DNA from: Schmidtea polychroa
Lineage: Eukaryota
Assembly (NCBI GenBank): GCA_044892525.1
Contig: CM097885.1
Span: 212,102,001-212,166,000 of the forward strand
Length of the DNA stretch: 64,000 nucleotides
Reading direction: 5' to 3'
Position 1 is the stretch's first letter; the number at the start of each line of letters is the position of its first letter. Under the pieces are notes generated by a model. It did no database searches, had not been told where the DNA came from, and saw only the letters and a program-made list of their open reading frames with translations. Position numbers and translations under genes: made by a program. Positions 2,259 to 35,635 of this stretch are shown here, in pieces.

Positions 2259-2484
2259 CATCAATTTCAATTAATTAGCGAATGCAAATTGACTAATACT
2301 TCTCGAATCTTATTATAAAAGTACGGTTAGAAAATGACGAAATTAAAGATATAAATAAAGTAAATTTAAAATTGGGAAAATAAAATAAAAGTAAAACAAC
2401 TTATAACAATTCAAAAGGGAAATGTTTGCTGAAACCACCATGTATTAGTTGTATATTATTAAAATATTTTCTTTTCTAATAGAC

Positions 2485-2970
2485 ATGACAGAATTCACAG
2501 AACTGATGAAACAACTAAGCAACTTCGTTGATATAGAAAACGATCCCATAAAAACGCTTACACAGAAAAGAGAGAGAATTAGGAGCATACAACTACAAAC
2601 AATGGGACAAGCACCAATCGTACCTAACCATATGTTATTAGCCATAGGCCTAAGTCGTGCAGATAGTAAAGTGAATCATGAAACCATATATCAGTGGTAT
2701 CAGGAAAGATTGAGACACCCCGCATTGAATCTAGAATATCATCGACTACGAGATCAATTAGATACTATATCCGACATAATCGAACAGAAGATACAAGAAA
2801 AGCTCACTAAATTACGAACCTGTCTGTCCTGCAAACTTCGTCCTATTCGCGTACTGTTCTTGCCCTGTGGACACCTCAGTCACTGCGAAGAATGTGTAAA
2901 CGATCTAAAACGGTGCACAATATGTAAGCACGAGATAAAAGAGACTCATATGGTTTATTATGGCGAATAA
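2485..2970 (+). CDS. RING-finger protein, C-terminal IAP/MDM2-like C3HC4 RING (161 aa from the second ATG)
   Basis: CLSC..IRVLFLPCGHLSHCEECVNDLKRCTICKHEI at the extreme C-terminus. TTTTCTTTTCTAATAG|acATG acceptor. AATAAA overlaps the stop. Confidence 0.85.
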   Translation: MTEFTELMKQLSNFVDIENDPIKTLTQKRERIRSIQLQTMGQAPIVPNHMLLAIGLSRADSKVNHETIYQWYQERLRHPALNLEYHRLRDQLDTISDIIEQKIQEKLTKLRTCLSCKLRPIRVLFLPCGHLSHCEECVNDLKRCTICKHEIKETHMVYYGE

Positions 2971-3520
2971 AAGTGTTAAAGATTTAATGACATTTATGAA
3001 CATCGAATTGATACTGACGATTGAAGGAGAATAAATGTAATTGTTGTGTGAAATATTATTAAAGTCTTAATTTTATTTTTATTTTTATGGCAAATAAATT
3101 CTTGTTATAAGCTGAGTAATCCATGGCTCTTAATTCTATTTTATTTTTTTTGGAATCAAACGAAAAGAGAACTAAACTAACGTGGAACTAGTCCCAATAT
3201 AGGCTGTAAGGGTACAACCGAGCCACCTTCGGGCGGTACGTTCTATCATGAGAAAAACCCATTGGGAGGGGATAACCGATCAACCTAAGTGAGGAGCGTA
3301 GGGCGGGGTACCATCGCAAATGATGAGAAGTTTCTGCGGTGTGACTGATCACCATGCCAATGCAGAAATGGATCATCGCGATCGTCGTGCGTTTTGAGCA
3401 AGGGGGGAAAGGGAAAACACTCTCAAGCGGTAAAGATTAAGTCGACAAATTAAAAGTAGACAGAGAAAATGGTAATGTAGGGTAAAAGAGGAAAGAGAGA
3501 AGTAGAAGTATGCAGAACAA

Positions 3521-3835
3521 GAGATATTAAGGCCGAGCTGTCGAAAAGTCCAGCCGGTCAGGGAAATTGAAACTGAGCTGTGAAAAGTCCAGCCAGTCGG
3601 AGATATTAAGGCCGAGCTGTCGAATAGTCCAGCCGGTCAGGGAAATTAAAAACTGAGCTGTGAAAAGTCCAGCCAGTCGGAGATGTTAAGGCCGAGCCGT
3701 CAAAAAGTCCAGCCGGTCAGGATAATGAAGATTGAGCTGTTGAATAGTGCCAGCCAGTCGTAAGATCGAGTTGTCGAATAGTCCAACCGGTCGGGATGAA
3801 GAAGATTGAGCTGTTGAATAGTGCCAGCCAGTTGT
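3521..3835 (+). repeat. Tandem array in the gag leader: about 8 units of ~40 bp arranged as ~79-80 bp dimers
   Basis: Recurring core GAGCTGT(C)GAA(A/T)AGTCCAGCC(G/A)GTC with alternating A/B spacers. Confidence 0.9.
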
Positions 3836-5176
3836 AAAGGCCTAGAGAAACGAGAGATAGCATTTAAGCTACAATGAGATAGTATTTAAGTTAACAGTGG
3901 AATGGAATATTAAAGCTAGTTAAAACAAGTTGAATATTAATTACAAGAATTTGAATTGAGAGGAATAAACGAGCTCGTGAAAAATGATAACAAGATTATA
4001 ACGAGAAAAAGTAAGAGAAGAGGGAAATGAATTAAAGAGATAATGGTAAACAAAGAATAAGCGAAAAGAGATGATGAGTAGAAGAGGAAATAATCAACTA
4101 ATTAAAGGGATCCCAGTGAAGTAGAGAAACTCTACGGAATATTTAATTTTTTTTGTTTAAACCGGGGAAATTAATTTATTAGTTCTAGCACAGAACTGAG
4201 TGAGAAATAGTAAAGACGAAAAAATGAGTAACATAGCGACAATGGCGCCAAAGGATTAGGAAAATAAAGGGGGGTAATAAGCAGTGACCGACAACGACCT
4301 ATTCATATTATAAGTATTAAAGATAGATAATTATTACGACTCTATAGATAATTGTTACTACCCCATATAGATAATTTAAAATCGACGAAAAATACGGGCT
4401 GATGGGAGATTATAACCCGCGGAAGTAATTGCATAAAAAATAGGGGAAGCATAAACAGAACCTAAAAGGTGTCTGTGTTTGGATGTTGCAGAAAGAATGA
4501 TGAAGTCGTGTAAGCAGATGCAACACGAGATCATTTTTTCATTTTAGATATCAAACCAATCCAGTCAATCAAGCCAATCCAGAACCTGCACAAAGGGAAT
4601 TCGAAGAAACCACCAATCAACCCAAGATAACTGATTCAGAACCCGCACGGCAAGAATAATCCAACTCGAAGACGGAAGACGATACAGATAACGACCCATC
4701 CAACTTCAAACGAATCACCGATACATTCAGTCTCGTGGTATTAGCAGCCATCAGCCAAGGACTCATAAATCTCCTCAGAATATCATTAGCGGAATCACAC
4801 AGGATACTCTTCGAAGACAATCTAGTCAGAACCGAACTCGCCCAACTCAGCAGTCGCTAGCTACAAGAAATCCACAAGAAACGGCTGAGAAGCGTAGGAA
4901 AGAATCACGGATAAACCAAATCTTAGATCTTCAAGTAAGCCAGGAGACGTATTATTTTCAGGAGACGAATTACAACAACTCAAAAGAGGACGATCCATTA
5001 AACAACAAAGAGGAATATCACAAGGAGCACGAAGAACCAATCAAATACCCATATTTGACCAAGAAAATCTCGGGTACACCCCTAGTCGATCTCGAAGCAG
5101 AGAAAGTCTATCCGACATCACTAATAGTTTAGCAACGTCAACCGAAGAACTATCGGCCCAAAGTCTAGTCACATCA

Positions 5177-7177
5177 TTGGATAACTTAAAAGAAACAGAC
5201 GAAGCTAGAACACCAATCATGACAAATGTCGTAAAGATCGACGAATATAAAGAGAAGTTCAGAGGAGAACCGTTCAACGGGAATGCAAACAAGTTAGCAA
5301 CGTTCATAACCAATTTTGAAGTCTATATCGATGTGTGTGGATGGACGTCCGAAGCAATTAGTAAACGGATGCCGTTGTTTTTATGCGATAGCGCATTAGA
5401 AGTGTATTTAGAAGCTAAAGAAAGAAATACGAAGTTAGACAGTTGGGAAAGCATCAAAACATTCCTGAGGAAAACTTTCGGAGCCAGCAAACCAATAAAT
5501 CAAGCGCTAAGCGAACTAGCAAGTAGAAAACAAAGAGCAAACGAATCCATAACATTGTATGCGAGTGAATTGCGAAGATTGGCAAAGAAGGCCATGAACG
5601 GAAACTTGCCGGAGGAAAATTTAATTGGTTATTTCATAGAAGGACTGCGCCGAGAAGAGGTAAGGGCCTCGGTGGGATGTCAAATGTGTAAAACACTAGA
5701 GGAAGCCATAGATTGGGCCACGAGATGCGAACTACACCTCCCGGCACAAATGAATGTCATGCAGGAGGAGGGGAGAATCGCAGCCGCAACGATAAAAACG
5801 GAAAATGGAGATAACAACAATCACGAACCAAAGATGAATCAATTTATACCGGGTGCACATCAAATTTTCAAACCACCACAAGGACGATCAAACGGGAATA
5901 ACAGTGAACGCAACAACTCGAACAATGGGAATAATTTTAATAATCGACGAAATACGAACGATAACAAACAATGCCGAACATGCGGTAAACCAGGACATTG
6001 GGATAGAGATTGTTACCGAAACGCAAATTGCAATAGGTGTGGACGACGAGGACACACGGAAAATATATGTCAATTGAGAGGGTGTTTTAACTGTGGTCAA
6101 CCAGGTCACATCTCAAGAGACTGTCGAGCAAGGAGCCAACCACAACGACCACCACAGCGAAATAATCATTATGCACCAAATCCGCAACGACAAAGTAATC
6201 CTAGTGAGGGAAAGCAAATGAATGTGATGCAAGAGATTTCACAAATGAAGCAGATGATGCAACAAATGATGAGACCGAGACAAGAACAAGTACCACAACA
6301 AACCCAGAATATACGCATGATGAGGAGTACCGAGAATCTTAACAATTATGAAGTGCAACAACATGCACAAGAATGGCAGAGACTACAAGCTGAAGAAGAG
6401 AGAATAAAAAGAGAGCGAATTCAGCAGCGACAAGAACAACCATTGCGAATAAATATGATGAGAATGGTAAGGGAGATAAAAGAGCAATATTGTTACAATT
6501 ACGGTAAAAATCCAAGAGTTGTACCTATGAGCGAACCAGAGAAACCGAAAGAAACAATTATAGAAACCAAAAAGGAAAGCCCAACAACACCGCTAAAGGG
6601 AAATCAGAGAATTCAGAAAATATTTTGGAAAAAGATAAAAGATAAAATCGAAAGAGAAAATGAGAAAACAAAAACAGAAGCAGAAGCGATAAATGATGGA
6701 AACGAGAAACAAACTAGTCATTTAACCCATGAAATGGTACAAGAATTAAAATCGGAAGAATTAACGATATTTGAGAATAAAAAGCTCAAGAAAGTACCAA
6801 GAATGAGAAATTTACGAATTAACATGATGAGGACGACAAAGAAGGTGTTGTCAACAGATGACGATGAGGATTATGTGAGTAGCCTTGGTGGAGAAATGTT
6901 ACAGTTAAATGAAAATATCGACCAACTAAGGGAAAAGATCGGAGCAGATGAGGATGAAAGTGAAAGCGACGTGACAAGCGAAAGCGCAGACGAGAATATC
7001 GAAATGAAATTGAGAAAAGAAAGAGACGAAGCGATAAAACAAGTAAAAGAAATACTTCCAGTGGTGGTCAGAAACCAGGAATTCATTGACAGTATACCAT
7101 ACAGACGCTTCATACAAAAGATAATGAAACTAGAAAGAAACGAAATAGACCTAATACCAAACGAGAAAAAGCGATAA
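5177..7177 (+). CDS. gag: Gag (capsid domain, three CCHC zinc knuckles, long charged C-terminal extension)
   Basis: Retrotransposon-gag-like helices (SWESIKTFL..F, RKQRANESI..YA.ELRRLA, FIEGL). Knuckles CRTCGKPGHWDRDC, CNRCGRRGHTENIC, CFNCGQPGHISRDC. 5177 is TTG; first ATG is 5219; frame is open from 4898. Confidence 0.93.
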   Translation: MDNLKETDEARTPIMTNVVKIDEYKEKFRGEPFNGNANKLATFITNFEVYIDVCGWTSEAISKRMPLFLCDSALEVYLEAKERNTKLDSWESIKTFLRKTFGASKPINQALSELASRKQRANESITLYASELRRLAKKAMNGNLPEENLIGYFIEGLRREEVRASVGCQMCKTLEEAIDWATRCELHLPAQMNVMQEEGRIAAATIKTENGDNNNHEPKMNQFIPGAHQIFKPPQGRSNGNNSERNNSNNGNNFNNRRNTNDNKQCRTCGKPGHWDRDCYRNANCNRCGRRGHTENICQLRGCFNCGQPGHISRDCRARSQPQRPPQRNNHYAPNPQRQSNPSEGKQMNVMQEISQMKQMMQQMMRPRQEQVPQQTQNIRMMRSTENLNNYEVQQHAQEWQRLQAEEERIKRERIQQRQEQPLRINMMRMVREIKEQYCYNYGKNPRVVPMSEPEKPKETIIETKKESPTTPLKGNQRIQKIFWKKIKDKIERENEKTKTEAEAINDGNEKQTSHLTHEMVQELKSEELTIFENKKLKKVPRMRNLRINMMRTTKKVLSTDDDEDYVSSLGGEMLQLNENIDQLREKIGADEDESESDVTSESADENIEMKLRKERDEAIKQVKEILPVVVRNQEFIDSIPYRRFIQKIMKLERNEIDLIPNEKKR

Positions 7178-7188
7178 TAAAGAAGTAT

Positions 7189-10100
7189 ATGGAAAAAATG
7201 AAACAAGCAGAGACAACACGCTACGTAATAAAAATTGGAACGAGCAAAGGACTCGAGAGAATATGGATAAAAAACACCGTTACAGACGAGCTCTTTGACT
7301 GGATAAGAGAACATTTGGGCAGCTCGAGAAAGAAAGAATACCTGTATCAATATCAAGGAGAACAAATCAAACCCGACATGCACCTAATAGATGCACTGAT
7401 CTGGCCAGGAGAAACTCAAATATTGAAGTTGCATAAAGAGAAGCAACCAACAAATGTTCACGAATGGGCTAAAGACGCCAAGGCGGAATACGATTTTAAT
7501 ATCAAGCTGAAGTTGGAACAAATAAAACAATGCACCTTGCGACGAAATCTAGATAAATTAATCAAACAAATCCAAGAACAAGTCGAAGACAACTGGGATT
7601 TGCTCATAGCAAGACGAACTCCAGACATGCATGAACTAATGAGCCGACTGCGCGATACAGAATTGCTCCGAATGAGTGATTGGAGAACCATAAATTTGAT
7701 CCACAAATACGGAAGATTAAAAGAAACGCAACCACAGAAATTGGAAATAACCATATGGTTACCAAACGAGGAGAAACGGCGAATAAAAATGAGCAACCAG
7801 AGTACGGTGGACGATTTAGTATCAAAGATAAACCAAGAAATAACGGAAAAAGTTCGAAGCGAGAGCAGCGATGGTATGATAGATGATGTAGTCATGATGT
7901 ACGACAAAATAATACTACGGGCTGAAGACGATACCTCGTTAAGCGAAATGGGAATGTGGGATAATCATCAAATAATTAGAATATTGCCCATGGACGAATT
8001 CCGAACAAGAGATGTAACATACCAGAAAGAGATACGGGACAGGATGAAAACGCTATACCAAAAATCAGTAGAGATAATCGAAATTCATCAACAATGGCTA
8101 AAAGAAAAAGAACTACAAGGAAAAATAAGGAAACTAAGTGTTAGATCCTGCAGACGAACCCCATGGGAAAGGATGTGGAATGCGGAAAACAAAGAATGGG
8201 AAATTAGGAAAGGGATTTTCGTGGAAACAGACATTGGTGAGATAGAAAGTGAATCAGAAGAAGAGGAAGATGAACCTCCAAAATACGAAGAGGACGAAAT
8301 AGAATCGATATCGGACGACGAAAGCGAAACGGATGTCACGTCAGAAAGTGAAACGGAAATCAGGCATATTCGTGCAATGAGAAAGAAGGAACGCGAGTAC
8401 GCCGACATAGACGGTGAAGAGGCAAAAGAAGCGAGAGATCGAGAAGAAAGAGAAAGATACAAACAATTAAGCGACATCTTAGAGACGGGGACAAAGAATC
8501 AGAAAAGACAAACGATAGCACTAGCCAATTTCATCCTAAAAATATCGGACAATATCCAGTATCTGAGAGAGATAGTAAAAACTATAGAGGAATACCGGCG
8601 ATACAACGAATGGTACCCGGAACAATTGGAACAAATCATTGGGAAGTGGCGAAACCATGAATGGTCACAAGACACCCAAGAAAGATATCGAATTCGAATT
8701 AAATACCCGGATAAAACTGTAGAAGAAGTGGAAGTACATCCAACCACAAAAATCAGAGAATTAAAAAAGAAACTAGCATACGAAACCCCATTCCATCTAC
8801 AACTACAAGGAAAATCATTAGATGACAATGTGGATGTCGGAATAACACCCATGAGGTTAGGGGAGATCAATGTATTAACAATGGCAGAAACATTGGGAAA
8901 ACCAATTAAAAGGAAGAGCAAATCCAGTAAAACTACGAAAGGTAGCTTGAGTACACCAAGCCCTGACAAAGTGGCGAGTAAATCGAACGAAACTGAGGAA
9001 ATTGAGGAGATCATATTAGAAGACAGCGATGAGGGAGCTGGAGAAAGATCGCCGATATTAGTAAGATGGCCGACAGGGGCAGAGATTTGGACAACAAGCC
9101 AGCCATCAACTAGTTACCAGCAACCGAGTAAGTTGAGTATTGAGGAGATTATCGATAATACGACAGAAACCGAAACCGATGAACAATTCCAACGACAAAA
9201 GGGATCAATGAGAATAACACCTGAAGGGCAAACAGACAAAATAATAGACGAATGGAATGAGTGGCTGAGAAACAACGATAGCTCATTACCAAGAACAGAT
9301 AACGAAAGAAACCCGAGTTACGAAAGGACAAGAGAAGCTGGAACAATGATGGAGAAACGGGCAAAAGGGAGGCCCAAGAAGCAAGGAGAAAAACCAGAAT
9401 TTAAAACCAGAGAACAGTTGAAACAGGAACAAGGACAAGTCAGATTAGAGAAATTGGATAAAATAGTATGGGACCTAAAAGAAGCTCAACCAACAATCGA
9501 GAGAGGCGAAAAATGGATACGAGAGCTAGTAAAGGATATGTTAATAATAACGAGTCCGCAATTGAGACGATTATGGCAACGAAAAGTGGCAAGCGTAGAC
9601 GCCAGACAACTATGGAATGTAATATCCGGAATAATTCCGAAATTAATTAAAGAGAAGACAAAAACCACTAAAACCGATTGGGAAGAGACAAGAAGAGTAA
9701 TTGAGCAATTAACTCTAAACGCAAACGACGACGAACATCATTTAGTAGTATTAACGTATCTAATGTACAATTTGATGGGATTAGCAGCAAGAAAAATACC
9801 TAACAAACAATTTGCAAATCATGTAGAAATGACCGTTACAATCATTGAAAATACAATCGAACCACATATTATCCGTGCCGGAGGGTGGAAAAGACTCATA
9901 CAAGCGCCACGAAAAAACGAGCAAGAGAGATCAATGCAAATTCGGTTGAAAAAATTACTAAACGAGCTAGAATGGGAATTGCCATTAAAGGACCCAGCCA
10001 GCAGAAAGGCGTCGATTAATTCACTAATGATGACCATGATGATATGGATGCTCTGCACCAGCGGAGCAGCTGGATTCACAATCTACGACTGTGACAATTC

Positions 10101-13100
10101 GATAATGGGAGAAAAATACTCCCTAAGAGATATAGAGGAATGTAGACAGGCATCTCCGAATAAATTGGATATAGTAAAAAAGAAAGTCTCCTACCACGTA
10201 TACCAAGAATCAGATTTTATCCGAACACAAGCTAGAGAATGCGTAGTATCAAAGAAGGTGTTGGCGTATTACTGTGGACAATACTCATATTCAACCCTCA
10301 TATTACCTGGATTAGATAAAGAAATAGTACCTATACAACGAGAAGACTGTAAAGAGCTTTTTAGAACCGGAGCGATGAGAATCCGGGATGGAGTAACAAT
10401 ACACGGACAAAGCGGAATGATCAAGACGGAAAGTATCTACGTAGCCGGACGGGTAAAATCAACCGATGGATCATGCAACGGAGGTACATATACGATCCGA
10501 GGAGAGGTAATATCCGGAGTAGTAGTAATCGAGTCCTACACAGTGGAGTTGAAGGAATACGAAGCGCAATTCGACGCAAATAATTATCAAATGAAAACCA
10601 ACCCAGCATGCAGAGCTACGGAAAACGTGTGTAGAACGGGAATTTCGACTATAATATATGAAGCCAACACCCAAAAATGCCGACTCCAATTGTTAAAAAG
10701 TGCTCTATTCAATAAAGTAAAAGGAGAAATATACGAAAACGAAGATGACGATGAAGAGAATGGAAACGTAAGAATGCGAAATGGGAAACCAGTTCCACCA
10801 TCCCCCAAAGAAAAGAGACTCACAACACAAAAAACACCAACGGCATTAATTACAGATGATCCAGATATCGGTATGAGATTCATCAGAGAAAAAGAGACCA
10901 CCAAATGTGACAGTATAGTATACCGGACGAACTACGCAGGTATCTACATGTCAAGGCAAGTAATAGACCGAGCAGTGGGAAAGGTAGCAACGGAGGACGT
11001 AAAATTGTACTTGTATGCCAATAATAAGATGGACTTCTTATTCCATCGAGGACAAACAACAATGCAAAAAGTGTATTACGATCTTATACAAAATGACTGT
11101 TCATTGAATAAAGAGATACTAAAAACAAAATTAGCCATCGCAATAACACACCCAGATAACACAATGCCATCACTCCCGTTACCGGATGGACACTTTGGTA
11201 GAATGGTGGGAGAGGTAATGTATACATATGCATGTACCAAGACGTTTGCGCGACTACCAAGAAAACCCACAATTCCACCAGGGAAATGTGCAAACGAATT
11301 AGAAATTAGTTACAAAGGGCGGAACAGATTCGTTCAACCCGTCACTAGAATTATGAACCCAATTGGATTTTATCCGAACACCTTTAACTGTTCAAATGCA
11401 TACGGGCCATTTTATGAAAAACCCGATGGGAAATGGATAATGTTACCGTTAAAAGTCGAAGTGCAGGAACCTAAAAAGTTTGGATTAATAGAACTTGCAA
11501 CAGAACAGGATTTCAAACCAATTGATGTGTCAAAGGCGGGTATGTACTCACCAGAGGATTTAGAAACGGCACGATTAAACGTACTATTCCCAGCAAGGCG
11601 AGAGTCCATTTTATCAAATATGGTTACCATAACTGGTGGAACAAATTTTCAATCAAGTCCCAATTATGAACTATTATTATCACCGGATCATTTTCAACAA
11701 GCCACGTCAAACATGATGAAAGCAATGTGGGGAAGATTTCTAGTGTTCGGTCAAATGATGGCAGGAATATTGGGAATCATCTTAATTATTCAGATAGTCA
11801 GAGTAATATTGACCCAAATGTTGGCATGTTTCGATATATACAAACGAGAAAAGAAAGTAAATTGGAAGTTGATAGTAGGTTTTCTACCATTTTTGGCAAA
11901 AACAATGGTGTTGCACGGTCATTCTAAAGATATACACAGAATAAAACGATTAATCAAAATACTGACAAAAATAAAAGGGACAGACGAAGAAGTTGGCAGA
12001 CGATTCCGGAAAACAATGTATGATGAAGCAACGAGAGCGCAACTAAAAAAGAACAAACCAAAATTCTTCGACAGATTTAGGAATCGATCAAACAGCAGCG
12101 ATAGTGATGATGACGACAACGGGAATGACAAATATCCATATCCAAGTAGAAACCCGAATGAAAAACCAATAGAAACAGCGCCATATTGGGAGAAAGAAAA
12201 AACAAATACCTGGATAGCCAACGGAAGTTATATACCCCCAGATATTGTTGGACAACAAGCAGCTCTAACCATGACACAAAATATGTATCCACAGTTACCA
12301 AGTCAACCAGGAATGAATTATATGCCAACCCGAAGAACGAAAAGTGTAGATCAAGCAGACGACGTCAGAACAATAGCAGTAATGAGTTCACCTGGAGGCG
12401 CGGCAGTAACAGTCATGATCCAAATCAACGGGAAAGAGACAAGCGCAATGATAGATACCGGAGCAAATGTATCAGCAATAGCAATAAACCAAATACCCAG
12501 TAAATATTGGAAAGATATCGAACAAACAACTATCCATATTATTGCATGCAGTAAAGAAACCGTAGACGTAGTAGGAAGATGGTGGACTACGTTACGATAT
12601 CAAGATAATGAAATTGAAACGTATCTAGCGGTGATACCCAAACTGAGTGAACCATGTATAATCGGAACGGATTTAATGCCGGAGTTGTTCAAGGAAGTAG
12701 TAATTGATTTAACAACAATGTGTCTAAAAGACAAAATGGGTAGAATATGCAAGATGAACGCAATAATTAGATGCCCGGAGAAAATAATTGTACCAGCAAA
12801 ATCACAGATGATATGTCAAATAAAAGTGGATGCAGGAATGGAAGGAGAAGCCATTTTTGAGCCAAGCAAATCATTCGAAAAACGACGAGAATTACCATTA
12901 GCAAGAGAAATAATAACAATAAATGAAGAAGGGGAAATACCAATTAACATCACAAATTTCGAAGAGGAAGATAAAATCATATATGAAAATGAAAGATTGG
13001 GTAGATTGACACCCATGATAGACATCGAATTGCCAAAAATCACCAATGAATCAACGAAAGCTGAAGAATTATGGATAATTGATAGCACCTTGCTAACGGA

Positions 13101-16100
13101 AAAGGAGAAGGAAAGACTCCAACAACTATTGATAGAATATAAAGATATATTCGCAATTTCGGATTTGGATTTGGGAGCATGTGAGGTCACACTACACGCA
13201 ATACCATTAATAGACGAAACTCCAATTGCGTTACGACCATATAAACTAGCAGAGAAGCAAAAAGAGATAGCCGAAGCAGAAGTGCAAAAAATGCTAGATG
13301 CACAAGTGATCGAACCAAGTTGTTCGCCATGGCAATTTCCAGTAGTCATGGTGAAGAAAAAAGACGGTACTCAGAGATTCTGTATCGATTATCGGAAACT
13401 AAATGCAGTAACAAAAAGAGACACATACCCGTTACCAGACATCAATGAGATGTTACTTATGCTGCAGGGGGCCGCATATTTTACATCTTTAGATCTGAAA
13501 AGTGGATATTGGCAGATCAAAGTAAAGGAGGAAGACAAAGAGAAAACAGCATTCACATTGGGCCGAGATCTATACCAATTCAGGAAAATGCCGTTTGGAC
13601 TAACCAATGCCCCAGCATCATTTCAGAGATGTATGAATTTTGTCACACACGGGATCAAGCAGTGTATGGTATATATTGATGATTTATTAATATATTCAGC
13701 AACATATGAACAACATTTGGAAGATATCAGAAACGTGTTCATCCGATTACGACAATGGAAACTGAAACTTAAACCATCCAAATGTGATTGGGCAAAAGAA
13801 AAAGTTACGTTCTTAGGACACATAGTGTCAGCAAAAGGCAAAGAACCAGATCCAAGAAACATAGAAAAAATAAAAACATGTCCAGCACCAAAAACTGTCA
13901 CCCAAGTTCAAGAATTTCTCGGATTATGCGGATATTATCGTAAATTCATTAAAAACTATGCAGGTATTGCGAAACCAATCCAAGAGTTGGTGAAAAAAGA
14001 TATCTCATTTATTTGGGGAGCAGAACAGCAAAAAGCATTCGAAACACTACGAGACAAATTGATTGAAGCTCCAATACTAGTACATCCTGATTTCAAGAAA
14101 CCGTTCTTGTTAGCAACAGATGCCAGTGGATATGCAGCCGGAGCAATATTGGGACAACTCGACGAGGAAGGAAAAGAAAGAGTGATTGGATACTACAGCA
14201 GAACGTTTAAAAAGCATGAGAAAAACTATTCCGTAACTGAAAGAGAAGCGTTAGCAATAATACAAGCGATTAAGCACTTTCGATATTTGTTATGGGGACA
14301 CGAAATATGTATCACAACGGATCATCAACCATTAGTATGGCTCGGACAGCATAAAGAAGCTTCAAGTAGATTGATGCGATGGGCAATGCAGTTACAAGAA
14401 TATTCACCGTTCATAAAATCCAAAGCGGGAAGAGCAAATGCCAATGCAGATTGTATGTCCAGATTTATTTTTCCAGACTTAGTAGATCACGAAATGCAAC
14501 GAATATGTCTGATGGTAGCGGAAGATTTAGATTTTTGCCAATTACGGAAAGACCAACAAGAGGATGTAGAGTTGAAACAAATAATCGAGTATGTGAAAAC
14601 CGGGAAAGCAGAGGCATATGAGAAAGATCAAAAATTGAAAGAGCATATGGATAAACATCGACATCGATATATTATCGAGAAGGATTGGTTATTGATAATG
14701 GATGGGGAAAAGAGATTGATGTGCATCCCCGAGAATAGACGTAAAGATTTGCTAACGCAATACCATGACGGAAGACTCGGAGGACATATGTCATCTAAAA
14801 AGACGTTAGCACGGATGAAACAAAAATACTTCTGGCCTACGTTATCCGAAGACATAACGGAATGGGTGAAGAATTGTATAACTTGCGCAACCAGAAGAAA
14901 CACGGGAACAAAATGGAAGGCACCATTAAAGCCAATGCCAGTACCAGCAGAACCCATGACTATGATATCTATGGATGTAGTCGGTCCATTACCAGAATCA
15001 GATAGAGGGAATATTTACATATTGGTGATCACGGACTATCTGACTAAATTTCCCGAAGCATTCGCTATGGCAGACCAGAAAGCAAAAACAATCGCAAAAA
15101 TATTAGTAGAGGAAATATGTTGTCGATATGGAACGCCGAAACAAATACTGACCGATCAAGGAACAAATTTCATGAGTGAGATAATGAGCGAAGTAACCAA
15201 TTACTTCAAGATTGCAAAATTAAGAACATCACCGTACCACCCACAAACAAATGGTATGACAGAAAGATTCAACGGAACCTTGATCCAGATGTTATCAAAT
15301 TATGTCGATCGTCATCAACGAGACTGGGATGAATACATAAAATTATGTCTAATGGCTTACAGAATGTCGATTCACGCGTCCACAAAGATGAGTCCGTTCA
15401 AGTTGATGTACGGCAGAGAATGCAATATGCCAATGGATTTGGAGTATCAGCCACCAATATCACAATACATGGAAATAGACGATTACGTAACCAAGTTCAA
15501 GGAAAGAATGCAGGAAATCTGGGAAACTGCAGGATTGAATGTAAAATTTTATCAAGAAAGTTACAAAGATTTACATGATAGAAAGAAAAACGTCAAACCA
15601 CATACGTTTCAAACAGGCGATTGGGTGATGATCGAAACACCGGAATTGATTCCAGGAACCACCAAAAAATTGCAACGAAACGGCAAAGGACCGTATGAAA
15701 TTTTATTCGTCGGAGAAACTAATGTAAGAGTACGATTAGTGAACAACCCTTTTACAAGACCAATATACGTAAATGTTGCACGATGTAAGCCAATTCCGAA
15801 AACCGCCACCAGTCAGCCAGAAGGACGCACATTAACGACAAGATCACAAACGTATAGAATAAATATGTTACAGCAGATAAACGAACCAACAGGTAATCGA
15901 TTGGGGTTACAACCCTCAGAAGCCGAGAAAATCATAAAGGAAGTAAAAGCTAAAATGCCCGGATGGGCAAAAGACAGATTAGATTTTGAGATATTGGGAG
16001 GTCTGCTAACAATGATAGAAAACTATGCCAATCGAGAAAGAACACACCCATTACTCAGAGTGGTTAAAAGTCAATGGCCTATATTATTCACAATCACAGA

Positions 16101-18927: not shown

Positions 18928-19239
18928 AAATAATCCGAGATAAACAACAGCGTAACAAACTCGAAATGATCAGAGCCAGAAATTTTCAACATCGAGTAAA
19001 AAGGCCCAGTAACATGAGCCAAGAACAGTGGATGGAGGCCTGGAATACGCAGTGCCCTCCAAATCCACAAATATAGAAAGGGTCATGACTGTATATAATT
19101 GTAAAAAGTAAGTATATCTTATGTATATAACAGTATCATATTTTTATATAAGCGCGGTATTACTAGTATATAACGATCGGGAGAAATAAACAATATAAAT
19201 TTAAATAAGACAAAGATTGAGAATATATAAAAATTAGGA

Positions 19240-19599
19240 ATGGAGCAAGGAAATAACGAAATGAACCACAACACAGTAACTGAAGAATTATGGAAGCAAC
19301 AATGTGCCGTATTAGCACAATTAGTGTCTAATTTACAAGAACAAGGATTGACGATGCAAAAGAACCTAATCGAGAGTATGAACAGAGGATTTAGTTATTT
19401 GAAAATAATTGAAGACCAGAGGTTAAAAATCGAACAAATGCACAGAGAAATAGAGAGGATAACCCAATATAGCCGAAGACAGGAAATCGAATTGGAAAGA
19501 ATGGTGGAGGAAGCAGAGCAGACGGAAATGGAAGATTGGTCAGAATGGCTAATGAGTAGAGAGGAGGGCGGACACGAAGCCGACTCTTCCGAACCATAG
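19240..19599 (+). CDS. Accessory coiled-coil protein (119 aa)
   Basis: Intact ORF with heptad-rich E/Q/L composition; TTAG|gaATG context. Confidence 0.65.
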   Translation: MEQGNNEMNHNTVTEELWKQQCAVLAQLVSNLQEQGLTMQKNLIESMNRGFSYLKIIEDQRLKIEQMHREIERITQYSRRQEIELERMVEEAEQTEMEDWSEWLMSREEGGHEADSSEP

Positions 19600-19684
19600 A
19601 CCAAACCTAAATTAAAATGTAAATAACTGTAAATAAAATCTCGAGCCTGTTTCGATAAGAACTATATGTATATATAATTATAGA

Positions 19685-21073
19685 ATGGATAAACGACAAA
19701 GAGAAGAGTTCAGAGAGATTGTCGAACAAGTCCGAAAATCTACAACGATCAAAATACACAAACATGTCATGTGTGGAATATGTGAAAAGTTGTTAAAGGA
19801 ACCTCACCAAACCCAATGTGGATGTAGATTATGTAAGGAATGTATCCGTGAAACAATAAAAAATAGACCACAGTGGTGCCCGGTGTGCAGAGAGACACTA
19901 ATATCGAGTTTAGAAGACACTAACGAAGATAAAGCCGCAGTGAAAGACATGCTAAATACCAATCTGGGATGCAAAAATACCCCATGCGAATGGAAAGGAG
20001 TAATATGGAAAGTAGTGCAACATATGGGAGAATGTATGTACAAAATCGGCCAATGTGAAAGGTGCCATAAAACTATTCGGGCAAGCGAAGAAAAAGAGCA
20101 TCAAAACCAGTGTGAAGAGAGATTAGAAAGATGCGAACATTGTGGAGAATTAGATACGTGGAAAAATCTCACCATCAAACATCACAATGTCCAAGAGGAA
20201 AAGGTATGTGCGGAGTTCAGTGGGGAATGCCCAAACGGATGTGAGAAAGGGAGAATAATGAAAATAACCCAACACCTAAAGGAATGTGAAAAGAAGAGAA
20301 TGATATGTGTGCTAGGTAAATGGGGCTGTCCGACACTATTACACCGAGGAGACCTACCACACCATCTAATGGAAAATGTAATAACTCACGCAGAAATGTG
20401 GTCAACTGCGTTACAAGAAAGCGAAGAGAAAGTAAAACAAATGGAAATAGAGATAACATCGTTGAAAGGGTTAGTCAAAGAACTACTAGAAGAAAGAGAA
20501 GCGTTCGAAGAAGCCCGAGCTAACATCAGAATGCAAATAAATCGTATAGAAATTAGCAACAATCAGGCCAAGGTGCTACATCAAAAGATAACAGAGATAA
20601 ATCTAAATGAAGTAATACCAACAGCACCCTACATATGGAAGATAACGGGAATAAAGGAAAGAATATGAAAAGCAAAAACCGGAGAAGATACAAGACTAAC
20701 AAGCCCCGCATTTCATTCCTGGAAAAACGGATACAAAATGAAAATGAAGGTATATCCCAACGGGGACGGAACCGGATTAGATACGCATTTTTCGATCTTC
20801 TTTATGCTCTGTAAAGGGGAGTATGATGAAATATTAGAATGGCCGTTCCAGGCAAAAATCGATATTACTCTAATGAACAACCAAAGTATACACGAGCAAA
20901 GCTTCAAAACAACGGGGAATCAGATAGCTTACCAGAGGCCCCTCAACGAAGAAGGAGCAGCAACAGGAGCACCGACGTTCATCTTACAACAAAGGGTAGA
21001 AGATATGGCGAGAAACGATACCGTATATATCAAGATGACGGTTCGGAGGGAAGGAAAGAGTAGAACCGAGTAA
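19685..21073 (+). pseudogene. TRAF-family gene (RING, TRAF zinc fingers, coiled coil, MATH) with one in-frame TGA at 20666-20668
   Basis: RING CGICEKLLKEPHQTQCGCRLCKEC..CPVC and several Zn fingers. MATH YIWKI...*...SPAF..GYKMKMKVYPNGDGTGLDTHFSIFFML.KGEYDEILEWPF. ORFs 19685 and 20738 are in the same frame. Confidence 0.9.
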
Positions 21074-21265
21074 CCAGGGTGAATAACGTTGTATATAATA
21101 AATCTGTATATATCGGTGTATATAACCAGTAAAATAATATATAATAATAGTATGGGATCCACAAATATAACAACCCAAACTGAAGCGGAAAATCCAACAA
21201 AAACATCAACCGAATAATAAAATCCAATAATGCGATGATATTTAATCAGAATCTATAATTTAGAG

Positions 21266-22321
21266 ATGACACAAGAAATAACCACCACAACTACGATGAC
21301 CCCAAGTAATGCAACCGAGATACAAACCCCCAAAGAACATAGCGAGAAATGGAACAAGGTGATGTTCCAATTAACTAACCGAACCCGCAACCACATCGAA
21401 GAAGCCAAGGAAGACGAAAATAGTAAATATCGATGGTTAATAAACAATTTAAGAATCGAAGCAGAGGCGTGTAAAAGAGCCTCTAAGTGGGCGTCATTGG
21501 AAAATACCCGCCAGGAAACACACAGTCACTACCTAAAACAGTTAGTGCAGGAGGCACGAAAACGGTTGACTGATGAAAATACCAAACGAGAAGCCGAAAA
21601 ACAAAAGGAAGGGAGAAAAATGAATCACCTATTGGCGGAAGCCCGAAAATGGAAACGACAGAACAAAGAAATGAAGAAGGAAATGAAAGAATTGCCCATG
21701 AGATTAGAGTACGAGAGCGAGCAGGGTAAATGGGAGGAAAATCTAGTCATAAAGGAAGAGCTAAAACGGCTAAGAAAGATCGCGGCTCGGAGTCAAACCT
21801 GGCAGACCAAGGCCATGGAGTTTGAAAGACATTTAGCCATGAAACTCTCCATAAGAGAGCACGAGAATGCTGCGATGGAAGAATTGATACTCCAGCAGTC
21901 AGGGCGAGTCGGGGAATTAATAAATCAAGTCACCGAGCTAAAACGAGATGTCAATGGATATCAGGGAGCTCTAGAACAAAGAAACATGGTATTGGTGGGA
22001 AAGAATAAAAAACTAGAAAACGAAAGAAAAATGTATCACGAAAATCTCAAAAATCTGGAGATAGAAATCGAGAAGTGGAAGGGCGACGAAAAGATAAAAG
22101 AGTTTGAGAGGCAGTTAAAGGTAAAAGACGAGGAGACGAGATACCTCACCTATTTGCTCGACGAAGAATTGAACATTACCAGGGCACTCAGAGATGAAGT
22201 TCAGGAGCTGAGAGCTCAAATTCCCCAATATTACATACCATATGACCCTATTGCCATCCAACTACAGGCAGCGGTCGAGAGCGATGAAGGATACGGGGGT
22301 CAGGAGGAAACCTTCGTATAA
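21266..22321 (+). CDS. Accessory long coiled-coil protein (351 aa)
   Basis: Intact ORF with continuous charged heptads; TTTAG|agATG; AATAAA just after the stop. Confidence 0.75.
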   Translation: MTQEITTTTTMTPSNATEIQTPKEHSEKWNKVMFQLTNRTRNHIEEAKEDENSKYRWLINNLRIEAEACKRASKWASLENTRQETHSHYLKQLVQEARKRLTDENTKREAEKQKEGRKMNHLLAEARKWKRQNKEMKKEMKELPMRLEYESEQGKWEENLVIKEELKRLRKIAARSQTWQTKAMEFERHLAMKLSIREHENAAMEELILQQSGRVGELINQVTELKRDVNGYQGALEQRNMVLVGKNKKLENERKMYHENLKNLEIEIEKWKGDEKIKEFERQLKVKDEETRYLTYLLDEELNITRALRDEVQELRAQIPQYYIPYDPIAIQLQAAVESDEGYGGQEETFV

Positions 22322-22491
22322 GGGCTAATAAAAAATTCAAAATTCAAAAATTGGGACTATATCCCAAACAAAAAAAATTAATAGTACAGTAAAAGTATTT
22401 GAGGGACTGTAACCCTGTGTAACTAAAAACGATATAAATGTATAAGTATAAGTCGCACTGTAGCGCATGATTAATTGTAAATATTATAGAT

Positions 22492-23196
22492 ATGAAGATT
22501 GAAGAGATAGTTGAACCCATGAGTGAAATAGAAGAAGGAGAGATTGTAATGGAAGTCGCAGAAACACAAATACTAAAGAGCGAATTACGAGAAGAGAAAC
22601 GAGAAAACGAGAGATTAGTAAACAAATATATGGAAGACCGGAAAATAATTAAAGTACTAAAGAAAGAATGCAAAATGCTGGGAGAAGTAAAGAGAGAAGC
22701 AGCAGAGAGAAATGAATGGCTGCAGGAGCAACAAAAACGAGGAAGAAATTGGGAAAGAATTGCAGAGGAATTATGGCAAGAAAGGGCAAGCTTCAAAGCA
22801 GAAGAAGTAATCCAAGACTACTGGAAAACAGAGGCGAGAGAACGCCAAACAACCATAAATAGATTAAATCGACAATTGGAGGAAAACCAACGAGAAAGTG
22901 AAGAAATGAAGAAATGGATTCGTAAATACAAAGAAATCGAGAGGCAACAACAACAACGAAACCATCCACAAGAGAACGAACAAGATTTCCTACAAATCGA
23001 GTTAAAAAGAAATCTCGACAAGAAACGAGAAGAAATAAGCAAACTAAAAAGGGAGATAAGACACCTAAAAAGGGAAGCCCGTGAAAAGGATCGGCAATTA
23101 GAGATGATGCCGGAGTTAAGACACCGGGTCATTGAAGCGGAATCTACCCTGATGAGAAATGCCGAAAATAATCCCAAAGGAGAACCATCTAACTAA
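22492..23196 (+). CDS. Accessory coiled-coil protein (234 aa)
   Basis: Intact E/R/K-rich ORF; TATAG|atATG. Confidence 0.72.
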   Translation: MKIEEIVEPMSEIEEGEIVMEVAETQILKSELREEKRENERLVNKYMEDRKIIKVLKKECKMLGEVKREAAERNEWLQEQQKRGRNWERIAEELWQERASFKAEEVIQDYWKTEARERQTTINRLNRQLEENQRESEEMKKWIRKYKEIERQQQQRNHPQENEQDFLQIELKRNLDKKREEISKLKREIRHLKREAREKDRQLEMMPELRHRVIEAESTLMRNAENNPKGEPSN

Positions 23197-23235
23197 AAGC
23201 AATTAAAGCCAGTGTAAATAATATAATAATAATAG

Positions 23236-23847
23236 ATGTATATTAGTACAATGCGGTATGGAATCGTGATAACGGTAATGGTATTGATAAATCACCTGAT
23301 GGAGAAACAACAATTAAACGCTCAACTGACAAGCATACGAGATCACCGCAATCGAAATCAAAAAGCCAAACCAGAACCTTGCCAATGCCAATACCCCAGT
23401 ACAATAAAAACCAACATCCTCCATAGTATCCAGTCAACTCGGTCATATGTTAATAACGTCAGAAGTCTGTGCAAAAATCACCCCATATGCCGAATGATGG
23501 ACCGAAAAATACTCGAACAAGTCCAACACTTCGATCAGTTGGAACAACAAATACAACAAGAAGTGTTCGAAAATCCGGCCGAGACAACAGAAACACCCTC
23601 AAATAACAGCGACACCCACTACCTTCTCTACGTAGTGATCGCAGAAACTATCTTGTTATGCCTCATAACTTTCCTAAAAATCCTCGAAGTTAAGAAAAAA
23701 TGTCAGAGCTCGAAATCTAGAGCCACCGTACAAAACCCAGCCGAAATAACCAATGTTATCCAAACCACAAGCTCACCCAGATTAAACCATAAAGAATCTC
23801 CTCAACCATCGTCCAATCGCCCAGTCTACCATAACACCAGTTCCTAA
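23236..23847 (+). CDS. Accessory predicted type I membrane protein (203 aa)
   Basis: N-terminal hydrophobic YGIVITVMVLI, 4-Cys ectodomain, TM YLLYVVIAETILLCLITFL, basic Ser/Pro tail; AATAG|ATG. Confidence 0.7.
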   Translation: MYISTMRYGIVITVMVLINHLMEKQQLNAQLTSIRDHRNRNQKAKPEPCQCQYPSTIKTNILHSIQSTRSYVNNVRSLCKNHPICRMMDRKILEQVQHFDQLEQQIQQEVFENPAETTETPSNNSDTHYLLYVVIAETILLCLITFLKILEVKKKCQSSKSRATVQNPAEITNVIQTTSSPRLNHKESPQPSSNRPVYHNTSS

Positions 23848-24470
23848 TTGTAGCAGCAAACCCCAACCAGAACCATCAGAGTGACCAAACAATGCCAGAA
23901 CTGAACTAAAAACACTATGTTGTGAAAAACTTTGTTGTGTATATAAACCATCACCATAAGTGATGCCTGCTTGGTCTTGATTTGACCTATATCTTATTAA
24001 TAAAATTTTATTGATGTTTATAATTTTGTTAATCACTATGTTATCTTTTTATGAATGTGCTTATCTTTTTCTGAGAGAATAAGAGTAGCTCAAGTATGTA
24101 ATTGCGGAGGCAATTTTGTCGGGTCCCCGAGTGATTTGTTGGGCTGAGTCGAAGAGGATCGGAGGGATTAGGTTAAGCATAACGAAACTAAAATTAAAAA
24201 TAAAAATAAAATAAACAAATCTACGAAACAAAGTAGAAAGGAAATAAGAAAAATAATAATTAGAAAATAAGAATTAAAACAAAAAATATAAAAACACGAA
24301 AAATTGAAATAGGACCATAAAATGACGGAAAATGACGTAAAATGCAGTAAATAATAAGGAAATTAAAGAAAATAAATAAAAATACAATAAAAATAAGGAA
24401 AATAGGAAGAAATAGCTCAAAAACAAGGAAAACAAATTAAAATAATAAAAATAGGCGGTACTCCATTCTG

Positions 24471-24504
24471 ATTGGTCCGCATAAGTAGAAAACTAATATA
24501 TAAG
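24471..24504 (+). promoter_or_regulatory. Candidate LTR promoter (inverted CCAAT box plus TATA box)
   Basis: ATTGG at 24471 and TATATAAG at 24497, followed by an AG|GTAAGT donor at 24553. Confidence 0.55.
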
Positions 24505-26637
24505 CAGACACTAAAATCATAACAATTACCGTTCATCTAACCACTACATTAGGTAAGTGTATTTTAATTAACAATTACCGTTCATCTAACCACTACATTA
24601 GAAACCAAAATTCACAGCGACAGCCACAGATTTACCGAAATCATTGCAAGGACTATTCTAGGAATCCAGGAAACTCAACCAATTCTATAACCTATTCTAG
24701 TATTAACCAATTCTGTTCAGAACTTTTCGATTCAGCCTATTTGAAAACTTGGTAAGGGATTTTTTCATTATTTAGGTTTACCATGCAACGATCATGTATA
24801 TTTATGAATTTGTAGTAGTCTAAATTTAACAATAATTTTTCTCTTTTCGTTTGATTTGAAGGTCTTACTTAATTAAATGTTTTAGTAATTTGGTAATAAA
24901 TATTTTATGATGAATTTTTATTATTTATCAATTTTATGGTATTCAAAATTTTGGAGAAACGTGGTGTTGAGATACTCCATGTCATGGTGTGACGTGCCTT
25001 CGGGAGCTCAGCCGGTGGACATGGGGTCTTTTCAATCACGCAGCTGATTCGGGCCGTAATGTGGGGGCTTCCTCACGGGTCCGTCGCTGAGGGAGTGACT
25101 AAATTCTATGAAAATTCGTACGAGGAAGTAGGGTAGGAGAATGAATCGATCAACAGGAGAAATTTGGAGATATTCGCGCAGTGATTGAGGGTGTCACACT
25201 AGCATGTAATAACAGCGGCTTATCAAGTTCAAAATCTTCTTTATCATCCAGTAGACCTAGGCAAGTCTTTCGTTAAAAAACCGTCCAACCTTGGTAGCGC
25301 TGTAGTTGCCATAGTTCTCGAATTCGCTAGAAATTTAATCTTGAAATTTTCAGCTAACGATTTTTGCGTAATCGCTATTCCTATCGGCTATATGTCCTCT
25401 CAAAGATAAAATTGTATGAAATCACGTAATTAAATAGGTTTAAATAATCATTAAAATAAAAGCGAACAACTCCAATCAGTAAAAATGTATTTCTCTAAAC
25501 AATAATTTATTAGAATAATGTTTACCCAGTAAAACATAAATTGTCCACATCCCGTCGAGTAGAAAATCCAGCATTGAGATAAGTAATAAATCTCCAATTT
25601 GACAGCAGTAGCCAGCGTACATTGATAGTGATGGAGGGCCACGAGACGAGCTAGTAAATCATATTTGAGGGATCGTGAATTAATTCCAACATTGATGATG
25701 TAAAAATCCGGTTTTTCCAAAATATCCATGAGAGATAACAGGCAGCATTTGAGGTAGATACAGGGTTCGTCAGTGATGTAACATGTCATATGGGAAGAAC
25801 ACACCTGCATGCATACACAGGCATAGTATAGAGCATGAAACGATCAGTCAGCGATTATGACTAAGTAGGAGTGGATGAGAAAAATTTTCATGTGCCACGC
25901 GTTTCCAGACCATCACCGAGACTACTCGTAATCGGTAGATTATACAGACAGTCAATCACAGAGAACCCCACCTGGCGCGTCAGTTGAAATGTGATTACAA
26001 AAAACATACTAATGACATTCACCCGATTTCTCACCAATCGGAATTAACAGACAACCGACAGGCGGTCCTTTGGATGCACTTAGCTAAACTCATTTAATTA
26101 TTTAGTTTTACTTTAATCATTCATATTTTCTTATAACTAAATAGGTGTAAATTAATTAACAAAACTTTTACGTGTCATAAATAAATAATTGTAGAGAAGG
26201 GGATAGATTACCGTTTATTTTTGGGTTCCTATTCATATGAAACAATTAATTTAAAAGTAAATCGACCTATTTGGACATGAGACTTACACCTCAAAATCAT
26301 TTATCTTGGGTATATCTGTAATTACATTCAAATTCTCTGACGATGCTATTTTCAGGTAAATTAATTAAATCATAATTTCATCAACTAGTGATTCCCCTTG
26401 TTAATGGTAATACTATATTTTCCTTCGATAAGATCTTGCATGGACGCTCTGTTCCCGTATAAATAATGACCCCAAGCGTACAAGATCTGTAGGGTAAAGA
26501 AGTCTCTTCAGGCTAATAAACTCGTTTCGTCTGTGTAACAACCTATGATCAGGGGGGTATGAGTGTGACTAGATGATGATGTCTCAAATTTGCCTTAGTT
26601 TGATTTTATTCGCATTTTCTCTTCATAGCTATCCAAG

Positions 26638-27381
26638 ATGTCTCCAAGTTCCAATAACATTCTTAAACCTTGCTTTTCTTGCTCGGACAAGAATTCAGTC
26701 ATCAGAGATCTACAAGCGCAAATTGGAAAATACAAAAGGAAGATAGATGAGTTGGAGGGGACATGGTTTAGTCCCGCGCAAATGAAGGAGACCCAGAAGA
26801 AATTGCATCGAAGCGAGCACTGTCGTGATGCTCTCATTTCCGAAAGTCGGGCACAGAGGAGCCTGATAAAAGAGCAGTCAGAAGCGCTGCATAAACTATA
26901 CATACAAGCGGCGACCACGAGAAAAATAGCGAAGATCCCAATTAACGAAGCCAGCAATCTCTTCCCAGCGCATCATGATACCTCCGTCAGGCTTTTGCCT
27001 CCACTCGCGAAGTCTTGCCATGGGTGTGTAGAGTCCGAGCTCTCTCCTAAAGACCCAGAGATTGTATTCACCGGGACCAGTAAGGTCCAGCCAAATCTCG
27101 CGTCCTCATCAACCGTACAAACGATCACCACTTCAAAGCCTAAGCGTCGACAGCTGTCTCGAGCAGAACGCAAACGGAAACAACGGGAACGGGCATCTGG
27201 CAGGCAGTGTACATCGTCAACCGTCGCTCCAGTCAGCGGTAATGGTAATCTGACGGTGGTCGACCCAACAACCGGGATCTCCGGGCGAGTCATCTCCGCC
27301 GTCGGGGTGACGTGGGAAGAAAATGCCGCCGAGTTCTTTAATCTGGACGAGTTACTCGCCGACTCGGAGTGGGAGAAATGA
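26638..27381 (+). CDS. Second copy of the LTR-encoded 247-aa protein
   Basis: Protein identical to 921-1664. Confidence 0.75.
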   Translation: MSPSSNNILKPCFSCSDKNSVIRDLQAQIGKYKRKIDELEGTWFSPAQMKETQKKLHRSEHCRDALISESRAQRSLIKEQSEALHKLYIQAATTRKIAKIPINEASNLFPAHHDTSVRLLPPLAKSCHGCVESELSPKDPEIVFTGTSKVQPNLASSSTVQTITTSKPKRRQLSRAERKRKQRERASGRQCTSSTVAPVSGNGNLTVVDPTTGISGRVISAVGVTWEENAAEFFNLDELLADSEWEK

Positions 27382-35500: not shown

Positions 35501-35635
35501 AAAGGAGTTGATCCTTCCGCAAATGCTACAAATCCTTCAATAGTGAATTCTCCACGTCAAATATCCACAGTCAAAACCAAAAGGAAATCTGAACACCCGA
35601 TTGAAGGTACATTGGAAAAGATTATGAAAAAATAG
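29510..35635 (+). CDS. WDHD1: WDHD1/AND-1/Ctf4. Exons 29510-29583, 29627-29738, 29785-30201, 30246-30438, 30584-31777, 31821-32148, 32192-32293, 35258-35635
   Basis: GT-AG introns give a continuous frame. WD40 motifs (FTSNVN, FKGHNGPV, LASASCDG), SepB-like WIGFSDSG and LLKLFA..QLAIRYAAR..LAEKMCELAIEK match AND-1. Confidence 0.92.
32500..33945. repeat. Extremely AT-rich tandem/satellite-like repeat in WDHD1 intron 7, spanning assembly gap 33162-33334
   Basis: Several imperfect copies of a unit of a few hundred bp containing GAT(G/A)TTCAACTGTCTTT and AAAAAATACATT(T)AAAATTAACATT. Confidence 0.8.
34200..34760 (-). pseudogene. Tc1/mariner transposase relic
   Basis: SGHPK (SGRP-like), FVHRDNTPAH (QDNAPAH-like) and NPENHW, with stops and frameshifts. 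Confidence 0.5.

Follow-up and report, generated by a model that had tools for sequence, protein, structure and literature searches.

How are the many genes of a giant retrotransposon expressed? The question is raised by a 64,000-nucleotide (nt) stretch of the Schmidtea polychroa genome (GenBank assembly GCA_044892525.1, contig CM097885.1, positions 212,102,001 to 212,166,000 of the forward strand; hereafter the window, whose own numbering is used throughout). Positions 1–27950 are a single long terminal repeat (LTR) element of about 29.5 kilobases (kb), the start of which lies outside the window. The element encodes gag, a long polyprotein and a set of accessory open reading frames (ORFs), all on the forward strand. 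Sequence patterns in this and related copies suggest that each gene is probably expressed as a separate mRNA, by cis-splicing of one short LTR leader to an acceptor before that gene. The original prediction had proposed a nested set of subgenomic mRNAs, made either by alternative splicing from a common LTR leader or by spliced-leader (SL) trans-splicing of a polycistronic precursor. The common-leader half of that interpretation is well supported at the level of sequence.

Acceptor Signals Upstream of the Accessory Genes

The original prediction rested on seven AG/ATG pairs and on two LTR donors, at 24553 and 24752, all of which are present in the sequence where they had been placed; the AGs end at 911, 2482, 19237, 19683, 21263, 22489 and 23235. 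Its rule that an AG lies 0–9 nt before each accessory ATG is true but weak as worded, since the same holds for 351 of 628 other ATGs of the element. A tighter pattern does exceed chance: TAG stands 0–2 nt before the ATG in six of six internal accessory ORFs versus 24 of the 628 other element ATGs, and shuffles of the 40 nt upstream give a joint chance of 2e-7 for YAG (Y, pyrimidine) at 0–2 nt in all six.

Host acceptors provide a second measure. A weight matrix was trained on 64 host introns from 20 dynein stretches, the introns being called by protein alignment alone; WDHD1 and PRP8 were also considered as intron sources and set aside. These acceptors are AT-rich with a weak pyrimidine tract (38 TAG, 14 CAG and 12 AAG; median score 7.8, 10th percentile 1.7), and 33 of the 64 introns are 41–59 nt long. 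The seven noted sites rank 1, 2, 4, 7, 19, 38 and 64 among 2098 AGs. Because T-rich spacers score high anyway, comparison within a spacer is the fair control, and by that comparison six of the seven are the top-scoring AG of their own spacer, the exception being the site of ORF A1 (fourth of 25). With scores of 2.8–10.1, six of the seven noted sites, together with a site upstream of gag described below, fall within the host range. Branch-point-like TTAAT, CTAAC or TTAAC words were seen by eye at ORFs A3 and A4.

The sites were then compared across 39 copies of the 3' part of the element and 20 of the 5' part, five of the latter without the RING ORF; counts include the window copy. The acceptor of the RING-finger ORF (2485–2970, 161 amino acids, PF13920) lies at 2458–2482, ranks first of all AGs and is YAG in 16 of 16 located copies (12 TAG, 4 CAG). 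That of an ORF encoded within the LTR, at 887–911 and again at 26604–26628, ranks fourth, alternates between TAG and CAG, and is among the top 10 of some 100–130 upstream AGs in 31 of 31 copy rows and among the top three in 22. The weakest site, that of ORF A1 (acceptor 19213–19237, ORF 19240–19599), ranks 64th and reads TAG in 15 of 40 copies and AAG in 21, with four not located. A TRAF-like gene with RING and MATH domains (19685–21073) follows an acceptor at 19659–19683 (rank 7) that is TAG in 36 of 40 copies, the other four not being located. Ahead of the coiled-coil ORF A3 (21266–22321), the acceptor at 21239–21263 (rank 2) shows an invariant TTTAG through 17 unique contexts, 35 of 40 copies being located, and ahead of the coiled-coil ORF A4 (22492–23196) the acceptor at 22465–22489 is the best of nine in its spacer and YAG in 40 of 40 (39 TAG, 1 CAG).

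Six of the proposed acceptors are thus kept in copies; the seventh had been misassigned. The site at 23235 is subfamily-specific (TAG in 18 of 40 copies, TGA in 13, TAA in 7, TTG in 1, not located in 1), and the conserved acceptor of ORF A5 is instead at 23222–23246, YAG in 40 of 40 (37 TAG, 3 CAG), 4 nt before an ATG at 23251 that is the likely start of this ORF (stop 23847); one copy has lost the first ATG of A5. AGs are kept in copies whose proteins fall to 50–65% identity, with TAG/CAG swaps at RING, A4, A5 and the LTR ORF and TAG/AAG swaps at A1, and host acceptors show the same TAG/CAG/AAG variety. A further ORF, at 20738, has no acceptor; it does not count as an additional gene, being the tail end of the interrupted TRAF gene.

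The Predicted LTR Promoter and Leader Exons

If these AGs are acceptors, a donor is expected from the LTR. The 3' LTR (24137–27950, 3814 bp) provides the numbering; only the distal part of the 5' LTR (1–2233) is in the window, the repeat beginning about 1.58 kb before it, and the working promoter and leader would lie in that outside part. A CCAAT box at 24470, present in 37 of 40 loci, and a TATA box at 24497 make up a predicted LTR promoter (24470–24504). A predicted first leader exon (24529–24552, its start placed from the TATA spacing) ends at donor D1 (24553), followed by a predicted 49-nt intron (24553–24601), the 3' end of which repeats exon 1 and the length of which fits the short host introns, and by a predicted, ATG-free second exon (24602–24751) that ends at donor D2 (24752).

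Both donors are conserved among copies. D1, fifth of 1025 GTs by rank, sits at 81–83 nt from the CCAAT box in 35 of 40 loci with diverged flanks (three loci are without the box and two without the donor). GTAAG is found at D2 in 30 of 33 unique LTRs versus 50 of 369 random LTR windows holding one. An ATG occurs in none of 30 exon-2 stretches, in 12 of 30 first introns, and in 30 of 30 equal-length stretches after D2, with 2–6 ATGs in each of these. Among 60 further, near-identical LTRs, D2 is present in 60 and D1 in 54. The promoter, both donors, the ATG-free exons and the host-type acceptors proposed for a common leader are therefore conserved as sequence.

Some LTRs are without the 49-nt intron (2 of 40 and 5 of 60). 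Such DNA copies are ambiguous between precise intron loss and repeat collapse because exon 1 is directly repeated, and LTR copy L137, at first taken for a clear case of a spliced copy, did not stand up to alignment. The repeat pair of exon 1 (24520–24601) stays alike inside each subfamily while subfamilies diverge, and some LTRs have lost one unit; the repeat may be a sign of strand transfer at the RNA's 5' end.

Two other donor candidates were considered. One in U5, at 1964 and 27681, is found in 14 of 16 copies but was set aside as the main donor, as it ranks 375 of 1025 and lies in a block conserved for other reasons; the donor-like site at 639 is not conserved. The last 300 nt of the LTR (1940–2233 and 27657–27950), which begin with GACGTAAG, are kept across subfamilies whose LTRs have otherwise diverged. 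This block could be an RNA structure, or a U1 site that shields the 5' poly(A) signal. A search of Rfam gave a single match, judged to be chance, and a tRNA search gave none.

A Predicted Acceptor Upstream of gag

One predicted acceptor had been overlooked. The coding region for gag and the env–protease–reverse transcriptase–RNase H–integrase–ankyrin polyprotein (5219–18927, split at 7177/7189 in the window copy) is preceded by a T-rich predicted acceptor at 4523–4547, which ranks 9 of 2098 and is the best of 215 AGs in its region. Several ATGs sit just 5' of it, and the 671 nt that follow up to the gag ATG hold none. The acceptor recurs in 14 of 14 copies, with no ATG over the 469–705 nt that separate it from gag, and the same combination of acceptor and ATG-free leader is found in the one copy of a second family (see below) that was examined. 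A second conserved acceptor-like site lies at 4961, also ahead of the gag ATG. An ATG-free open frame of 107–115 codons (4897–5218 in the window) precedes that ATG in 14 of 14 copies.

These observations bear on a very unlikely reading in which no splicing takes place, the TAGs arising incidentally from stop codons, spacers rich in AT and the purine at position −3, and downstream ORFs being reached by reinitiation or leaky scanning on polycistronic RNA. The TAG/TAA/TGA alternation at 23233–23235 and the TAGG/TAAG alternation at A1 are indeed stop-codon swaps as well, and in many cases the G of the AG serves as the −3 purine. Four sites, however, show TAG/CAG swaps, which do not preserve stops; the nearest ATG downstream of the gag acceptor is 671 nt away; and the ATG-free leader exons and fixed donors would be left unexplained.

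Predicted mRNAs

In the cis-splicing scheme, transcription would begin some 390 nt into the 5' LTR, roughly 30 nt past the TATA box and close to 24529 in LTR numbering, and the leader would consist of a 24-nt and a 150-nt exon. D2 would then be joined to one of eight acceptors, those of the LTR ORF, RING, gag-pol, A1, TRAF, A3, A4 and A5, across predicted introns of 1.9–24 kb, and the poly(A) hexamer behind each ORF would set the 3' end of the corresponding mRNA. The primer-binding site (2241–2258), presumably tRNA-Pro-like and with the same motif in the second family, would fall inside the intron of every mRNA from RING onward, leaving only that of the LTR ORF as an exception. Since the mRNAs from RING onward would lose this site, only RNA that keeps it would be copied.

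The scheme implies that R spans about 3 kb and that unspliced RNA is somehow kept and exported. A candidate export factor is the basic protein encoded in the LTR (921–1664 and 26638–27381, 247 amino acids), which has an Arg/Lys-rich stretch and no match in a Pfam search. A fuller model, offered tentatively and held at somewhat under even chances, likens the element to the adenovirus late unit: one promoter, a two-exon leader and eight monocistronic mRNAs, gag-pol included, with their own poly(A) sites and Pumilio-type UGUAHAUA nearby, an R region holding a complete spliced gene, and possibly an export regulator. As R would hold that complete gene, solo LTRs would be self-contained genes.

Spacers and Polyadenylation Signals

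The six spacers of the 3' cassette (18928–24135), 39–310 nt long, hold poly(A) hexamers and 11 copies of TGTAHATA (H, any base but G). The motif occurs 11 times in 1101 nt against a Markov mean of 0.54, and is absent from the opposite strand of the spacers and from the other 22.7 kb of the element. Spacers of the second family (loci L072, L074 and L101) have seven in 1050 nt on the sense strand versus 0.44 expected; its density in host dynein loci is 0.16 per kb. We take TGTAHATA to be a Pumilio-type element. A CFIm role for UGUA is disfavoured: PMC5068929 reports its absence from the poly(A) sites of planarians. The same source gives both AATAAA and ATTAAA as planarian poly(A) signals.

The original prediction placed AATAAA just downstream of several ORFs, and AATAAA or ATTAAA does follow all eight ORF stops examined; no control was run, and AATAAA is frequent in any case, the strand being rich in A (62 sites). 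The LTR has hexamers at 1796–1809 and 27513–27526, seen in the sequence and in copies. A hexamer for each ORF suggests monocistronic rather than 3'-coterminal mRNAs, and the nested set of mRNAs is therefore probably wrong.

A hexamer followed by an acceptor is also what an operon would contain, and it is conceivable, if unlikely, that the 3' cassette is cleaved at each poly(A) site and then given the host SL in trans at these AGs, with the LTR donors serving the 5' genes only. The spacer lengths fit the operon spacing near 100 nt reported in PMC8629364. SL trans-splicing is reported in S. mediterranea, with flatworm acceptors common to cis- and trans-splicing (PMC12582326), and the Gypsy element Cer1 is described as having an SL1-spliced mRNA (PMC3315495). 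On the other side, the conserved donors D1 and D2, with their ATG-free exons, lie upstream, and cis donors are reported to outcompete the SL (PMC4558846, PMC8629364), a consideration that does not apply to RNA left after internal cleavage. Several sites misfit the UUNYAG acceptor motif given for the SLs of parasitic flatworms (PMC12582326).

Reading frame offers a further comparison. Flatworm SLs generally end in AUG. Of the 15 AG-to-ATG gaps counted over both families, only 5 are divisible by three, which is the chance level and shows no in-frame bias for an SL-supplied AUG, as might be supplied by the Macrostomum SL, reported to end in AUG (PMC8629364). The SL alternative of the original prediction thus gained no positive support. 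It is possible that the same acceptors are used in both cis and trans, as is reported for parasitic flatworms (PMC12582326).

A promoter within each spacer is distinctly unlikely. Every accessory gene would then have a promoter of its own, and these AGs would close a short local 5' intron if there is one. The env of Oikopleura Tor3b/4b is reported to be driven from an internal promoter (PMC4402516), and TATATAA-like words are present in the spacers. Those words, however, belong to the strand-specific TGTAHATA motif and often stand only 10–25 nt from the ATG; two of the spacers measure just 39 and 84 nt; and no conserved local donor turned up, although no search was aimed at local donors.

A Second Family With a Similar Pattern

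A second family of elements, which carries BIR ORFs, repeats the acceptor pattern; blastn found no match between its accessory region and that of the window element. YAG lies 0–3 nt before the ATG in seven of its eight ORFs and AAG before the eighth, against a null of 70 of 538, and a TAG/CAG swap occurs at a BIR ORF. YAG also precedes the LTR ORF in six of six diverged LTRs examined, and a donor is conserved 76–86 nt after a TATA-like box in six of six. On the donor side this is only a partial repeat of the pattern in the window family. One rearranged tandem copy (L086:2355-2820) has a family-2 LTR start with an inverted piece and the RING ORF directly after it. In a third, env-bearing family, no accessory cassette was found in the stretches fetched.

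Evidence That Weighs Against Cis-Splicing From the LTR

Several results count against joining of one LTR leader to all of these acceptors. RNA evidence consists of assembled contigs only, from sequencing runs of presumed kind, and no junction was observed: for the contigs of runs X1, X2, X3 and X6 over 18500–28000, 15 joints (of 40) and 24 loose ends (of about 1205) are listed, and among these neither leader nor SL meets an acceptor. Low host-matrix scores are obtained for A1 (1.3), A5 at 23246 (−1.0) and the AG of the 49-nt intron (−6.2), and D2 ranks only 167 of 1025 GTs. None of the 60 near-identical LTRs is without the D2 intron. The donor of family 2 is preceded by an ATG in all six LTRs, and its CCAAT box is on the wrong side, downstream. 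The copies are kin, so that their counts are not independent events, and the weight accordingly rests on the swaps and on the second family. Finally, the scheme would require introns as long as 24 kb, transcription through several poly(A) hexamers and the proposed R region of some 3 kb.

On the whole the RNA contigs are uninformative about splicing. For contigs of runs X1 and X6 over L071:120-4420, neither leader nor SL meets an acceptor in the two joints and the 12 of 47 loose ends listed. One X1 contig runs unspliced across the A1 site. A contig joint at 24519–24569 is precise loss of the 49-nt intron or, equally, collapse of the direct repeat. An A-run of X6 at 22377 was rejected as a poly(A) site, X6 having A-runs in the middle of ORFs too.

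The Element and Its Surroundings

The LTRs are 3.8 kb long and 99.84% identical (6 differences over 3.8 kb), with TG...CA ends and a TTAT target duplication. Pfam domains from Gag to the polyprotein fall on one strand in the order retrotrans_gag with CCHC, Monjiviricetes-type fusion protein, protease, reverse transcriptase, RNase H, integrase and ankyrin, and accessory ORFs have RING and TRAF/MATH domains. By size, LTRs, target duplication, domain order and extra domains, the element is a Burro-type giant Gypsy, a type already known. The family is large in the genome: scoring of 40 of 399, 122 of 1132 and 150 of 3509 candidates gave a match in every case.

The LTRs of the window copy are near-identical, yet its gag-pol (7177–7189) and TRAF gene (20668–20738) are interrupted, unlike in many copies. 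Between RING and gag lies a tandem array of units of about 40 and 79 nt (3482–3840). Elements also occur head to tail with common LTRs at a spacing of about 26.2 kb, for example at C4:46239036-46291880 and C2:177681735-177708429. Elsewhere in the window are a second, ordinary Gypsy element on the reverse strand (45907–51819), whose 577-bp LTRs are 99.5% alike and each contain a 36-nt perfect palindrome, and two host genes, one WDHD1/Ctf4-like (about 29600–35635, forward strand, with introns of 45–47 nt) and one MMACHC-like (61673–62209, reverse strand).

Relation to Known Systems

In the adenovirus major late unit, a single long precursor combines a common leader of several exons with alternative acceptors and a number of poly(A) sites; adenovirus being a DNA virus, the resemblance is one of analogy only, not homology. 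Complex retroviruses have an LTR-overlapping ORF and spliced mRNAs that lose replication signals, and the window element is predicted to be alike in both. Retroviral mRNAs have one common 3' end, and Gag is translated from unspliced RNA, whereas the window element, which is Ty3/Gypsy and not a member of the Retroviridae, has a poly(A) hexamer per ORF and a gag with its own acceptor. HIV-1 and HTLV-1 express their accessory genes from alternatively spliced mRNAs (PMC3185809). The single LTR promoter, common leader and many acceptors of such viruses are likewise predicted for the window element.

Short spacers with a poly(A) signal and then an acceptor are likewise found in SL-resolved operons (PMC8629364, PMC12582326); unlike those operons and Cer1 of C. 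elegans (PMC3315495), the window element has conserved cis donors upstream. Oikopleura Tor elements are invertebrate env-bearing LTR elements as well, and the env of Tor3a is reported to be spliced from the LTR transcript; they differ in having a single env gene and, in Tor3b/4b, internal promoters (PMC4402516).

The closest relatives are Burro/GYPSM1, described as giant gypsy-like LTR elements of planarians (PMC6431247). With these the window element shares a size above 25 kb, long LTRs, a Gag with CCHC, a mononegavirus-like fusion protein between Gag and protease, ankyrin repeats, and TRAF/MATH and RING accessory ORFs. It differs in the BIR domain, for which Pfam gave no match in the window ORFs and which sits instead in the second family, so that the element is set apart from Burro1 proper, the carrier of IAP. 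No account of Burro transcript structure was found in the literature searched; Grohme 2018 and Lee 2026, which were outside its coverage, may describe one. New here are the eighth acceptor (4547) with its ATG-free gag leader, the hexamer per ORF and the strand-specific UGUAHAUA spacer motif.

Significance

Planarian genomes contain Burro elements in large numbers. One of their accessory genes, B-IAP, reportedly has a protective role in stem cells (cited in PMC13465017), and Burro RNA is reported to rise in animals with PIWI knocked down (PMC8532177). The exact predicted junctions given here can be tested in existing RNA data. The mode of expression of the six to eight accessory genes, which lie as far as 24 kb from the promoter, determines how the element can tune them separately from transposition. 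If cis-splicing from the LTR is correct, a Gypsy lineage would have evolved RNA processing of the kind used by complex viruses, and with a 3' end for each gene, which retroviruses do not use.

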